Below are positions 6,574 to 52,021 of a DNA stretch of 64,000 bases, piece by piece (position 1 is the stretch's first letter; each line of letters opens with the position of its first letter). A program made the translations under genes and the position numbers. Source of the stretch: Escherichia phage vB_EcoM_ACG-C40; sequence record NC_019399.1; one strand, given 5' to 3'. The notes under the pieces were generated by a model. It did not search any database. It saw only the letters and a list, made by a program, of their open reading frames with translations, and was not told the DNA's origin.

Positions 6574-8133
6574 ATGACTATCAAAACTAAAGCTGAACTT
6601 TTGAACAAATGGAAGCCATTACTGGAAGGTGAAGGTTTACCGGAAATTGCTAATAGCAAACAAGCGATTATCGCTAAAATCTTTGAAAACCAGGAAAAAG
6701 ATTTCCAGACAGCTCCGGAATATAAAGACGAAAAAATTGCTCAGGCATTCGGTTCTTTCTTAACAGAAGCTGAAATCGGTGGTGACCACGGTTACAATGC
6801 TACCAACATCGCTGCAGGTCAGACTTCTGGAGCAGTAACTCAGATTGGCCCAGCTGTTATGGGTATGGTACGTCGTGCTATTCCTAACCTGATTGCTTTC
6901 GATATTTGTGGTGTTCAGCCAATGAACAGCCCGACTGGCCAGGTATTCGCACTGCGCGCAGTATATGGTAAAGACCCAATCGCTTCCGGTGCTAAAGAAG
7001 CATTCCACCCAATGTATGGTCCAGATGCAATGTTCTCTGGTCAGGGTGCTGCTAAGAAATTCCCAGCTCTGGCTGCTAGCACACAAACCACAGTAGGTGA
7101 TATCTATACTCACTTCTTCCAGGACACTGGTACTGTGTATCTGCAAGCTTCTGCTAAAGTAACAATTAGCGCAACTGACGCAGCTAAATTAGATGCTGAA
7201 ATTAAGAAACAAATGGAAGCTGGTGTACTGGTAGAAATCGCTGAAGGTATGGCTACTTCTATCGCTGAACTCCAGGAAGGTTTCAATGGTTCTACCGATA
7301 ACCCATGGAATGAAATGGGCTTCCGTATCGATAAGCAAGTTATCGAAGCTAAATCTCGTCAGCTGAAAGCTGCTTACTCTATCGAATTAGCACAGGACCT
7401 CCGCGCTGTTCACGGTATGGATGCTGATGCTGAACTGTCTGGCATTCTGGCTACAGAAATTATGTTGGAAATCAACCGCGAAGTTGTTGATTGGATTAAC
7501 TACTCAGCTCAGGTTGGTAAATCTGGTATGACCCTGACTCCGGGTTCTAAAGCTGGTGTATTTGACTTCCAGGACCCAATCGATATTCGTGGTGCTCGCT
7601 GGGCAGGTGAATCCTTTAAAGCTCTGTTGTTCCAGATTGACAAAGAAGCAGTTGAAATTGCTCGTCAGACTGGTCGCGGCGAAGGCAACTTCATTATCGC
7701 TTCCCGTAACGTAGTTAACGTTCTGGCTTCAGTTGATACCGGCATTTCTTATGCTGCACAGGGTCTGGCTACCGGCTTTAACACTGATACTACCAAGTCA
7801 GTATTTGCCGGTGTTCTGGGCGGTAAATACCGTGTATATATCGACCAGTATGCTAAACAGGATTATTTCACTGTAGGTTATAAAGGTCCGAACGAAATGG
7901 ATGCTGGTATTTACTATGCTCCATATGTAGCTCTGACTCCGCTGCGTGGTTCCGATCCGAAGAACTTCCAACCGGTAATGGGATTCAAAACTCGTTACGG
8001 TATCGGTATCAACCCATTTGCAGAATCCGCTGCTCAGGCTCCGGCTTCTCGCATCCAGAGCGGTATGCCTTCTATTCTGAATAGCCTTGGTAAAAACGCT
8101 TACTTCCGCCGTGTATATGTTAAAGGTATCTAA
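6574..8133 (+). CDS. 23: Major capsid protein gp23
   Basis: 519-aa ORF starting MTIKTKAELLNKWKPLLEGEGLPEIANSKQ, near-identical to recalled T4 gp23 (521 aa). Confidence 0.97.
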   Translation: MTIKTKAELLNKWKPLLEGEGLPEIANSKQAIIAKIFENQEKDFQTAPEYKDEKIAQAFGSFLTEAEIGGDHGYNATNIAAGQTSGAVTQIGPAVMGMVRRAIPNLIAFDICGVQPMNSPTGQVFALRAVYGKDPIASGAKEAFHPMYGPDAMFSGQGAAKKFPALAASTQTTVGDIYTHFFQDTGTVYLQASAKVTISATDAAKLDAEIKKQMEAGVLVEIAEGMATSIAELQEGFNGSTDNPWNEMGFRIDKQVIEAKSRQLKAAYSIELAQDLRAVHGMDADAELSGILATEIMLEINREVVDWINYSAQVGKSGMTLTPGSKAGVFDFQDPIDIRGARWAGESFKALLFQIDKEAVEIARQTGRGEGNFIIASRNVVNVLASVDTGISYAAQGLATGFNTDTTKSVFAGVLGGKYRVYIDQYAKQDYFTVGYKGPNEMDAGIYYAPYVALTPLRGSDPKNFQPVMGFKTRYGIGINPFAESAAQAPASRIQSGMPSILNSLGKNAYFRRVYVKGI

Positions 8134-24660: not shown

Positions 24661-24668
24661 TTTGTGTT

Positions 24669-24721
24669 CCTCATGTTATGTCAGTAAGACTACTGTAACA
24701 CAACACGAGGGACTTGTAAAC
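24669..24721 (-). promoter_or_regulatory. Early-promoter-like cassette with inverted repeat (copy 1 of a 53-bp repeat)
   Basis: Minus strand reads GTTTAC-18 nt-TACAGT, then CATGAGG Shine-Dalgarno region; 53/53 identical to 38376-38428. Confidence 0.6.
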
Positions 24722-31475: not shown

Positions 31476-31543
31476 TTTTATTCTCCGAGATGTTTAATTG
31501 CGGTACAGGTATATAATATCATATCCTGTACCAAAGTAAACAA

Positions 31544-31876: not shown

Positions 31877-31884
31877 TTTATTCT

Positions 31885-31933
31885 CCTTTGTTTGTGTAAG
31901 ATAATACTATCACAAAGGAACCATACTGTAAAC
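31885..31933 (-). promoter_or_regulatory. Early-promoter-like element with -10 inside a stem-loop
   Basis: Minus strand GTTTAC (31933-31928), 18-nt spacer, TAGTAT; stem CCTTTGT/ACAAAGG (31885-31891 with 31912-31918) encloses the -10. Confidence 0.5.
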
Positions 31934-31953: not shown

Positions 31954-31982
31954 AAATAAAAAAGGACTCCCGAAGGAGTCCT
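31954..31982 (-). terminator. Rho-independent terminator after the 30.9-like ORF
   Basis: On minus strand GGACTCC-TTCG-GGAGTCC followed by TTTTTTATTTT. Confidence 0.7.
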
Positions 31983-31986
31983 CAAC

Positions 31987-34810: not shown

Positions 34811-35043
34811 AGTACGCCATACACCCTTTGTGCTTCAACTAATCCATCAAAATCCAATTTGAGATGTGTTATTTGGTCACCATCACCTGGATTCACAATT
34901 ACTAATACTGAACGAGGAGTTTCGGTAATAACGCGAACCGATGTTTCCGGAAATCGTTCAGAAACCTTATTTACCAATTCCTGGGCAAATAGTTTAACTT
35001 TTTCTTGGAATTCTTTAACAGTAATTGGTTTTTCACTTAGCAT
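34807..35043 (-). CDS. Hypothetical protein (cd.2-like)
   Basis: 78-aa ORF. Confidence 0.5.
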   Translation of the reverse strand: MLSEKPITVKEFQEKVKLFAQELVNKVSERFPETSVRVITETPRSVLVIVNPGDGDQITHLKLDFDGLVEAQRVYGVL

Positions 35044-35064
35044 TTTGTTTTCCTCATTCGTTTT

Positions 35065-35103
35065 GGTAGAGCTATAATATCACAACTCTACCATAAAGTA
35101 AAC
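35065..35103 (-). promoter_or_regulatory. Early-promoter-like element with -10 inside a stem-loop
   Basis: Minus strand GTTTAC (35103-35098), 18-nt spacer, TATTAT; stem GGTAGAG/CTCTACC (35065-35071 with 35086-35092). Confidence 0.5.
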
Positions 35104-35105
35104 TG

Positions 35106-35381
35106 TTAAATTGCTTTGAATTCTGATGTCTGTGATTCAAAACGAATATCACCTTTGATGACTAGCTCAGCATCAAGACCGAATACGACAATGATATGCG
35201 CGGAACCTGGATACAACGTAATGGCAATAGAATCCACCTGGTCTGGAAGCAAAGTATTCAATACATGAGTCACTTGAGCATGAATTCGAAGCTCGGCTGC
35301 GTTATCAAGCTTTTCAAACATATTATTAGCAATAATTTGGCTAAACACTACTTCTACGATTTTAGAATAAGTCGGAAACAT
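35106..35381 (-). CDS. Hypothetical protein (cd.3-like)
   Basis: 91-aa ORF. Confidence 0.5.
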   Translation of the reverse strand: MFPTYSKIVEVVFSQIIANNMFEKLDNAAELRIHAQVTHVLNTLLPDQVDSIAITLYPGSAHIIVVFGLDAELVIKGDIRFESQTSEFKAI

Positions 35382-38366: not shown

Positions 38367-38375
38367 CATAAAGTC

Positions 38376-38428
38376 CCTCATGTTATGTCAGTAAGACTAC
38401 TGTAACACAACACGAGGGACTTGTAAAC
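38376..38428 (-). promoter_or_regulatory. Early-promoter-like cassette with inverted repeat (copy 2 of the 53-bp repeat)
   Basis: Identical 53-mer to 24669-24721; stem GTCCCTC/GAGGGAC perfect in this copy. Confidence 0.6.
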
Positions 38429-47336: not shown

Positions 47337-47361
47337 TTTCTTTTCTCCATTAGTTTTGATA

Positions 47362-47396
47362 GGGTAATAGTATCACACTACTACCCTGCTGTAAAC
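47362..47396 (-). promoter_or_regulatory. Early-promoter-like element with -10 inside a stem-loop
   Basis: Minus strand GTTTAC (47396-47391), 18-nt spacer, TACTAT; 8-bp stem GGGTAGTA/TATTACCC at 47362-47386. Confidence 0.5.
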
Positions 47397-48055: not shown

Positions 48056-48150
48056 ATTATTTTCCTCTTTAATTATCAGCAGTATTGCCGATAGTTGTAT
48101 AGTACCATGGAAGGACAAGGATGTAAACAGTTTTGTGAAAAAATTTTTGA

Positions 48151-51991: not shown

Positions 51992-52021
51992 ATTATATAC
52001 TATCTAAATCTTAAAGTAAAC
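51992..52021 (-). promoter_or_regulatory. Early promoter for rnh
   Basis: Minus strand GTTTAC, 18-nt spacer, TATAAT; AGATTT/AAATCT inverted repeat around the -10. Confidence 0.6.

Follow-up and report, generated by a model that had tools for sequence, protein, structure and literature searches.

PeSL (promoter-early stem-loop) cassettes have been described in T4-type phages (Arbiol 2010, PMC2839356; Comeau 2014, PMC4122927). Their stem-loops lie in the stretch from the -35 box to the -10 box or overlap these boxes, and one such stem-loop cut lacZ expression as strongly as rrnB T1 (PMC2839356). Elements at the internal-protein (IP) loci of T-even phages, which combine T4 early promoters with weaker, AT-rich stems, were termed analogs rather than homologs (PMC2839356). 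PeSLs have also been catalogued for the PST/T4 pair, with stem-loops that are positioned immediately upstream of the promoter according to the figure legend (PMC4122927). Inhibitory hairpins are also known from the T4 genes e, soc, 49 and I-TevI, where they pair the Shine-Dalgarno (SD) sequence or AUG in long transcripts that start upstream (PMC3014915).

The T4 early promoters themselves form a defined class, and extra conserved regions are mentioned where their consensus is described (PMC2988021, PMC1524935). The parts of the reviews and comparative papers that deal with these promoters do not mention intramolecular pairing (Hinton 2010, PMC2988021; Nolan 2006, PMC1524935). A literature search on T4 transcript-end maps and on dyad symmetry in early promoters found nothing relevant.

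Here we analyzed a window of 64,000 nucleotides from Escherichia phage vB_EcoM_ACG-C40 (NC_019399.1). An initial annotation of this window had pointed to minus-strand elements with the layout GTTTAC-18-TAnnnT in which the -10 is enclosed in a hairpin. We focus on the element at 35103-35064 (minus strand) and compare it with the other early promoters of the window, with those of T4, and with their orthologs.

A known T4-type early promoter with a hairpin around its -10

Nucleotide comparison identifies the window as a Tequatrovirus (T4-like) genome. About 480 Tequatrovirus genomes are 95-99% identical to the 2-kb stretch around the focal element, and the local gene order (pseT-cd.5-cd.4-cd.3-cd.2-cd.1-cd) is the same as in phage T4. 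At the orthologous site, between cd.2 and cd.3, the T4 record names the early promoter Pe133295. By sequence and position, the focal element upstream of cd.2 is the ortholog of Pe133295 and thus a known, annotated T4-type early promoter. The other elements are likewise orthologs of T4 early promoters, so the initial description of them as "early-promoter-like" was well chosen. Window and T4 differ at three positions in the focal stretch, one of which is the outermost stem pair, and the T4 14-mer orthologous to the focal loop is annotated as inverted in an older T4 sequence.

The focal cassette (all features on the minus strand) is bounded upstream by the stop codon of cd.3, which ends at 35106. 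The -35 element GTTTAC occupies 35098-35103, as assigned by the motif match and by orthology with Pe133295. The promoter spacer holds the 5' arm TGGTAGAG (35086-35093, about -26 to -19). This arm is followed by a 14-nt loop, ttgtgaTATTATag (35072-35085), which contains the extended -10 (TGn) followed by TATTAT as the -10 hexamer (35079-35074), and by the 3' arm CTCTACCA (35064-35071, about -4 to +4). The stem first noticed as GGTAGAG/CTCTACC is therefore present, and spans 8 bp as TGGTAGAG/CTCTACCA. The SD sequence of cd.2, GAGG (35055-35052), and its ATG (35043-35041) are located downstream of the hairpin. Judged from the usual 7-nt distance to the -10, transcription would start at the A at 35067, inside the 3' arm, so the promoter's own RNA is expected to lack the 5' arm.

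A promoter scan returned TG-extended sigma-70 matches at 35102, 31932, 31540, and 38427. The focal-site sequence ttgTGaTATTAT bears the TGn directly upstream of the -10. Further upstream, at about -40 to -60, the sequence cagaattcaaagcaatttaaca is the coding end of cd.3; it is moderately A-rich and differs from the aaaattttttcacaaa type found in other copies of the promoter. Five near-identical loci were found among the IMG/VR relatives of Cd.2, four of them with an inserted ORF in place of the promoter. No Rfam family was detected anywhere in the window.

The RNA fold of the focal element is a 13-bp stem of -17.2 kcal/mol (z -5.2 versus shuffles) that includes three G·U pairs. UUGUG and UAUAG in the loop pair through G·U, so that an AUAU tetraloop remains. 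As single-stranded DNA, the stem gives a 9-bp hairpin of -6.7 kcal/mol. The main stem stops 9 nt short of the SD sequence of cd.2, and a weak CUUUA/UGAGG extension is predicted. The predicted probability that this SD sequence is unpaired is 0.31 in read-through RNA and 0.82 in the promoter's own RNA. The tail that follows the stem, AAAACGAA, contains no U-tract.

Early promoters of the window

The motif search recommended in the initial annotation (GTTTAC-N18-TAnnnT) returned 8 matches in the 64 kb, every one of them on the minus strand. Dinucleotide shuffles predict 1.01, and none of 100 shuffles reached the observed count. The eight strict matches sit on the early-gene strand, and every one lies just upstream of a minus-strand ORF, the placement that had been reported for the listed elements. 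If a 17-nt spacer is allowed, a ninth promoter appears, at 31541.

This ninth promoter (31502-31541, minus strand; GTTTAC-17-TATTAT) is located upstream of 30.7. Its 8-bp arms are GGTACAGG (31532-31525) and CCTGTACC (31509-31502), with z -5.05. The element at 31541-31502 is the best example in the window, and it was absent from the initial list.

The promoter upstream of 30.8 (31884-31933, minus strand) has the predicted stem, here as 8-bp arms TCCTTTGT (31919-31912) and ACAAAGGA (31891-31884) around a 20-nt loop, and its fold is moderately unusual (z -1.8). The 3' arm ACAAAGGA is the SD sequence, whose predicted probability of being unpaired rises from 0.00 in read-through RNA to 0.85 in own-promoter RNA. 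An intrinsic terminator, GGACTCCTTCGGGAGTCC followed by a T run (31962-31983, minus strand), lies just upstream of this promoter.

Upstream of frd.2 (47361-47396, minus strand; z -4.4), the RNA stem AGGGUAGUAGUG/UACUAUUACCCU has 12 bp, including two G·U pairs. This is longer than the 8-bp stem first proposed, GGGTAGTA/TATTACCC, which contains one G·T; the arms are perfectly complementary only over AGGGTA/TACCCT. The -10, TACTAT, is located in the 3' arm. The original picture of a -10 held in the loop of a stem is thus an approximation, as RNA stems extend into the -10 and at 47396 the 3' arm overlaps it.

Two promoters share the 53-bp repeat that had been noted at the outset. Its copies, 24721-24669 and 38428-38376, are identical and 13.7 kb apart. 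Copy 2 belongs to the promoter upstream of alc (38371-38428, minus strand; ATG at 38369), whose RNA hairpin reaches -32.8 kcal/mol (z -8.1) and pairs the spacer AAGTCCCTC... with ...GAGGGACTT, the SD sequence. Copy 1 belongs to the promoter upstream of alt.-3 (24666-24721, minus strand). It forms the same inner hairpin with a weaker outer stem (-24.3 kcal/mol, z -5.6).

The stem reported for the rnh promoter (51992-52021, minus strand), the 6-bp A/T repeat AGATTT/AAATCT, is unsupported. It is not above chance, its fold has z +1.2, and it is absent in RB69. We attribute it to chance, since 6-bp repeats enclose 25% of random points and the stem is missing from RB69. Among the four stems named in the initial annotation, those at 35103 and 47396 are therefore strong, that at 31933 is moderate, and the one at 52021 falls away. 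RNA folding revealed no hairpin around the -10 at 48128 and 62732, and the two window promoters with which a transcription unit begins, those of rnh and asiA, are without a hairpin.

Complementarity is enriched across T4 early promoters

We extended the analysis to all 41 strict minus-strand motifs of the whole T4 genome. Perfect inverted repeats of at least 7 bp surround the -10 at 16 of the 41 promoters, compared with 8.2% of random positions (binomial p 6e-8). Repeats of at least 8 bp do so at 8 of the 41, compared with 2.7% (p 1.4e-5). When the spacer and downstream halves were swapped between T4 promoters, only 3.2% (at least 7 bp) and 0.5% (at least 8 bp) of the combinations paired, an excess of 10- to 40-fold for the native pairs. 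The pairing is thus specific to each promoter and is not derived from the consensus.

The inverted repeats are also positioned. Twelve of their centers fall in the 10-nt bin that holds the -10, where genome density would predict 1.85. The dyad axis of the tight class is at about -11.5, which is no more than the middle between the closest free positions flanking TGn and the -10. RNA folding agrees with the repeat counts. With z-scores computed from RNA folds against shuffles and a strong hairpin defined as z below -3, 46% of T4 early promoters qualify, versus 3% of decoys with one mismatch and 6% of random background windows. T4 late promoters (TATAAATA) are intermediate at 19%, in agreement with the known late-promoter hairpins. 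As a class, the hairpin architecture is real and non-random. Such a hairpin is missing from about half of the early promoters and is thus dispensable for promoter function.

Orthologs retain pairing while arms and flanks change

Seven phages from four genera (T4, RB69, F2, JS98, C6, TH22, and CJ20) preserve the 30.7 stem, with a length of 8-12 bp. In the orthologs GGTACAGG/CCTGTACC is retained and lengthened to 10-12 bp, and loop and flanks are variable. The alc promoter pairs its spacer with the SD sequence in four lineages through differing arms (z -4 to -8): AAGTCCCTC/GAGGGACTT in the window, TCTCCTCAT/ATGAGGAGA in JS98 and C6, TCTCCATTTGGTT/AACCAAATGGAGA in CF1, and ATCCTCATCA/TGATGAGGAT in W14-2. 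RB69 and F2 show no such pairing at alc, and in TH22 and CJ20 the promoter itself is missing from this site. Within Tequatrovirus, substitutions in the alc hairpin replace G·U by A-U and C-G by U·G, among others.

The focal stem varies in a similar manner. An A to G change turns A-U into G·U in RB69 and F2, and U-A has become U·G in RB51. In JS98, CGGTAGGACT/AGTCCTACCG occupies these columns, and three of the pairs are altered in both partners. GEP001 has a disruptive G to A, and in C6 and CJ20/TH22 the 5' arm is replaced and a short hairpin is confined to the spacer. In an alignment of 10 sequences, 84% of the cells are paired, versus 35-53% with slid partner columns. The covariation score was equalled in 54 of 500 shuffles, with only three pairs changed on both sides, so this evidence is suggestive only. 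At stem ends G·T outnumbers A·C (15 versus 8), a difference that is not significant by itself. Across these comparisons, the aligned sequences suggest that changes in orthologs tend to keep pairing, through G·U or compensatory changes.

The same loci show signs of recombination. Directly downstream of the focal promoter, some genomes have a 528-bp ORF that others lack, PhiZZ6 shows a hybrid joint at this site, and the RB69 promoter of 30.8 resembles T4 65413 and carries the downstream half of the 30.7 promoter. The cassettes could accordingly be read, along the lines of the PeSL model, mainly as homology patches or hairpin targets for shuffling small genes, with the hairpin as a recombination signal or by-product. 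The exact 53-bp repeat, the promoter halves that are mosaic between loci and phages, the ORF indel with its joint, and the reported PeSL mini-circles and loop crossovers (PMC2839356), together with the PST/T4 PeSLs (PMC4122927), all fit this idea. It does not account for the arms. Homologous exchange requires direct repeats, not intramolecular complementarity, yet the arms remain complementary while varying between promoters and lineages. Neither the strand asymmetry nor the SD involvement described below is predicted, and the indel joint of the focal cassette falls in the segment from the SD sequence to the ATG, outside the stem. We consider recombination unlikely as the main role and compatible with the RNA-based explanation as a secondary consequence. 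The initial suggestion that the elements serve as homology for illegitimate recombination thus agrees with the 53-bp repeat and the indel joint, and leaves the complementarity of the arms unexplained.

The hairpin probably acts in RNA rather than DNA

In the set of 41 T4 promoters, sense strands have a mean minimum free energy of -12.25 kcal/mol and antisense strands one of -9.34 kcal/mol (Wilcoxon p 2e-4); in the background, the two strands differ by only -0.5. The better folding of the sense strand is due to G·U pairs. We compared read-through RNA started 72 nt upstream of +1 with the promoter's own RNA started at the presumed +1. In partition-function predictions, the probability that the SD sequence is unpaired is 0.00-0.04 in the former and 0.4-0.88 in the latter, with part of the lower accessibility in long RNAs being a general effect of length. 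The window promoters at 38428 and 31933 and about ten T4 promoters fit this pattern of predicted SD sequestration.

Genomic context gives the same indication. Strong hairpins (z below -3) occur at 12 of the 19 promoters with a -35 no more than 25 nt from the stop codon upstream, compared with 5 of the 22 others (Mann-Whitney p 0.02; distances are ORF-based and approximate). They occur at none of the six T4 promoters preceded by an intrinsic terminator. Together with the substitutions in orthologs, the sense-strand bias, the SD-containing arms, and this context argue for an RNA hairpin in read-through transcripts and against a DNA structure. Strand bias, conservation of pairing, and avoidance of terminators all point to a read-through RNA hairpin.

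An alternative at the DNA level is that the inverted repeat is extruded as a cruciform, or folds into a hairpin once the DNA is unwound, and in this way masks or uncovers the -10 and makes promoter activity dependent on supercoiling. An engineered cruciform promoter with such dependence was reportedly obtained by Horwitz and Loeb in 1988. The dyad axis of the tight class clusters at about -11.5, as such a model would have it. Some T4 promoters, such as 65799 and 57990 with 14 bp each, carry long perfect palindromes around an 8-nt loop, and these fold equally well on both strands. In addition, the shut-off of early promoters has been described as incompletely understood (PMC3014915). A cruciform, however, needs both strands to fold, and in the set as a whole folding is better for the sense strand than for the antisense strand. 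The focal stem, which has 7-8 Watson-Crick pairs and a 12-14-nt loop, reaches only -6.7 kcal/mol in single-stranded DNA, much too little for competition with the duplex. Many 3' arms are ribosome-binding sites, which have meaning in RNA only, and the free positions closest to TGn and the -10 suffice to explain where the axis lies. We therefore rejected the cruciform-regulated promoter on energetics and strand asymmetry, and regard this reading as quite improbable.

The initial annotation had proposed that promoter use is coupled to DNA or RNA structure. The RNA form of this proposal gains from the better sense folds, from ortholog changes that keep pairing, and from the several 3' arms that are ribosome-binding sites; the DNA form is not favored.

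Intrinsic termination was also considered. A terminator scan called no intrinsic terminator at the -10-enclosing stems, and no U-tract follows any of them, so this candidate was rejected.

Short inverted repeats are common in A+T-rich DNA and could have been picked by eye, as the 25% of random positions enclosed by a 6-bp repeat with a loop of up to 40 nt, the rnh example that fails every test, and the z of only -1.8 at 31933 illustrate; for the class this reading is refuted, and we give it hardly any credence, in view of the enrichment (p 1e-5 to 6e-8, 10- to 40-fold over swaps, with a peak at the -10), decoys at background level, and stems conserved across genera, and it holds for the window promoter at 52021. 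The initial annotation was to be abandoned if the stems proved unconserved or no more frequent than chance; the class has conserved stems above chance frequency, and the rnh stem has neither property. Similarly remote is the reading of the dyad as an operator at which a dimeric repressor of phage or host origin would turn early promoters off, which the symmetry centered on the -10 and the recurrence of GGTA...TACC in several arms would suit, but which we rejected because the arms share no motif (GGTAGAG, GGTACAGG, GACAAGACTA, GGGACCA, AATTGTGA), their spacing ranges from 8 to 18 nt, TACC is part of the downstream consensus and also occurs partnerless (T4 166807), and pairing that depends on G·U is irrelevant for a protein site on DNA.

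Proposed mechanism

Our preferred explanation, which we consider probable as a whole, is that these elements are genuine sigma-70 early promoters whose spare positions have acquired complementarity that acts as RNA in read-through transcripts. The promoter frame consists of GTTTAC at -36 to -31, TGn, and a TAnnnT -10, and the focal copy would drive cd.2. In about 40% of early promoters, the positions that RNA polymerase does not need are mutually complementary, the spacer at about -26 to -16 being matched by -7 to +8 or by the downstream SD sequence. As T-even early genes are arranged head to tail on one strand, transcripts started upstream would cross internal promoters. Such read-through transcripts would bear both arms and form a stable hairpin. 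A transcript from the internal promoter would start in the 3' arm or in the loop and so lack the 5' arm.

Two types may be distinguished. In type B (38428, 31933, and 24721), the 3' arm is the ribosome-binding site, so read-through RNA would be silent for the downstream gene, and translation would occur only from the promoter's own RNA. In type A (35103, 31541, and 47396), the hairpin is placed tightly around the -10, between the upstream stop and the downstream ribosome-binding site. Type A most likely represents an intercistronic insulator on read-through RNA, either an attenuator or a barrier to decay or processing, as has been claimed for PeSL stem-loops. Alternatively, once the RNA is cleaved, as by RegB at the GGAG of the ribosome-binding site downstream (PMC3014915), the hairpin may shield the upstream message. 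The focal element might also partially occlude its SD sequence through the predicted CUUUA/UGAGG extension. Attenuator activity of type A is putative, as U-tract and terminator call are both lacking, and the distribution complementary to that of terminators is only indirect support.

More tentatively, these hairpins could impose "promoter-of-origin" control on a large fraction of T-even early genes, such that translation or message stability is granted only to own-promoter RNA. We regard this broader possibility as doubtful at present. If true, a gene would be silent or insulated on abundant read-through RNA, and the embedded hairpins would be a compact substitute for a separate terminator. 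This would amount to a general, so far unquantified layer of early regulation, extend a mechanism known for a few late or middle cases, and explain the many closely spaced early promoters of T4.

The non-contact positions of a strong promoter can hold a second, RNA-level code, as seen for about 40% of T4 early promoters. For annotation and engineering, this means that shifting or deleting such a promoter alters the folding of read-through mRNA and sometimes the translation of the next gene. Promoter cassettes also mark indel joints.

Comparison with known systems

The finding is a rediscovery, in a genome of the T4 genus, of a published kind of element. Added here are the enrichment statistics, the sense-strand bias, the anti-SD subclass with its lineage-specific arms, and the inverse relation with terminators. 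The gain is therefore in quantification and in a clear call for RNA versus DNA, with no new mechanism.

With regard to the T4 early class (UP element, GTTTAC -35, TGn, and -10; PMC2988021, PMC1524935), both the sequence elements and the orthologous positions match. The hairpins resemble intrinsic terminators in forming a stable stem at the end of the upstream gene, and differ from them in having no U-tract.

The likeness to the hairpins of e, soc, 49, and I-TevI is closer. There, too, a promoter lies inside the hairpin and its own transcript lacks the 5' arm, a geometry that the focal element would share given its probable start. The promoters at 38428 and 31933 and about ten T4 early promoters are predicted to sequester the SD sequence, as those hairpins do, whereas at 35103 the SD sequence is outside the main stem. 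The documented cases have a late or middle promoter inside the hairpin, which delays expression. In the elements studied here this promoter is an early one, so the two RNAs would be produced simultaneously.

Together with these hairpins, the PeSL cassettes are the nearest published parallel. Like them, the elements combine a strong early promoter with a stem-loop in the short gap from a stop codon to the SD sequence and ATG, and the focal cassette fits this plan. Repetition of cassettes, small non-essential ORFs downstream, and borders at indels are also shared, in this genome as the 53-bp repeat and the 528-bp ORF indel. The stems themselves differ. Those of RB49 are made of a G-run and a C-run, one of them terminator-like, whereas the stems described here are diverse and moderately AT-rich, have no U-tract, wrap TGn and the -10 tightly or reach the SD sequence, and rely on G·U pairs.

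Rearrangements at the focal promoter

The T4 record NC_000866 annotates the 14-mer at 133300-133313 as the 'inverted complement of previously reported sequence'. This 14-mer is precisely the loop of the -10-enclosing hairpin in the focal early promoter between cd.3 and cd.2 (window 35085-35072; 7301-7314 in the fetched sequence L001), bounded by the 7-bp arms GGTAGAG/CTCTACC. The coincidence of the annotated segment with the loop indicates that in the older T4 sequence, or in the clone behind it, the loop between the two repeat arms was inverted. With the loop inverted, TATAAT would sit 13 nt from the -35 element and the promoter would be killed. We infer that the inversion was either a sequencing artefact or a product of selection against a strong, toxic promoter when the region was cloned.

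At window 35139-35011 (minus strand), the sequence covering the -35 region and the first part of the spacer (GUUUACUUUA) is partially complementary, via G·U pairs, to the common ribosome-site sequence UGAGGAAAAC, and in the long RNA this pairing is predicted to lengthen the focal hairpin over a 7-nt internal loop.

Downstream, an ORF of ~528 bp resembling JS98 orf212 separates the promoter from cd.2 in T6, GEP001, ECML-134, JS98, C6 and CJ20, as well as in most of the best BLAST hits (indel site, window 35043-35060; compared in L019, L020, L024, L012, L014, L016 and L023). The window, T4, RB51 and Sf24 are without it. In PhiZZ6, the Shine-Dalgarno segment of this ORF (gaggaaattgaaATG) is joined straight to cd.2, which places the indel joint within the Shine-Dalgarno-to-ATG part of the focal cassette. 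Four metagenomic IMG/VR contigs (L002-L005) encode a Cd.2 that is 97-99% identical; in these, coding sequence reaches the cd.2 start (…taaggagctgggatcaacATG) and replaces the promoter.

Hairpins at other early promoters

The best conserved stem is that of the promoter upstream of 30.7 (window 31541-31502, minus strand; 8 bp, GGTACAGG/CCTGTACC), which the initial annotation did not list. A plus-strand promoter-like match, GTTTAA-19-TATCAT, lies at window 31492 because the 30.7 promoter region is palindromic. Upstream of alt.-3 and of alc lie two copies of one promoter cassette, a direct repeat whose 53 bp from GTTTAC to GAGG are identical (window 24721-24669 and 38428-38376). Only the alc copy completes a 9-bp outer stem with its own Shine-Dalgarno sequence.

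Hairpins also occupy other positions. A second repeated promoter family, with aaaattttttcacaaaac upstream and TACTATacaactatc(a/g)... downstream, has no -10-enclosing hairpin at window 48128-48070 (minus strand) or at its six T4 sites (167086, 163673, 146875, 70696, 55384 and 27080); the 5' leader of the window copy instead contains an 8-bp hairpin (UAUCGGCA AUAC UGCUGAUA). In a third placement, the hairpin is confined to the spacer and the TGn of the extended -10 terminates its 3' arm (CACC..GGTG, CCACAaggaTGTGG; L016 6096-6157, L014 6032-6101; T4 2458, 50973 and 167086). At the focal position of CJ20, TH22 and C6, such a hairpin takes the place of the stem around the -10.

Terminators and late promoters in T4

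Among the 41 T4 early promoters, a strong hairpin (z below -3 for the RNA fold against shuffles) was found at 0/6 preceded by a terminator and at 12/19 abutting the upstream ORF (-35 within 25 nt of its stop codon, ORF-based distances being approximate). At these promoters, a hairpin embedded in the promoter and a separate intrinsic terminator upstream of it tend to be mutually exclusive.

The late promoters were taken as all TATAAATA sites of the T4 genome (L007-L010). A z below -3 was obtained for 19% of them, against 3% of decoys, and 16% are enclosed by a repeat of 8 bp or more, against 2% of decoys. This excess agrees with the known e, soc and 49 cases of T4 and suggests that there are further cases of that type.
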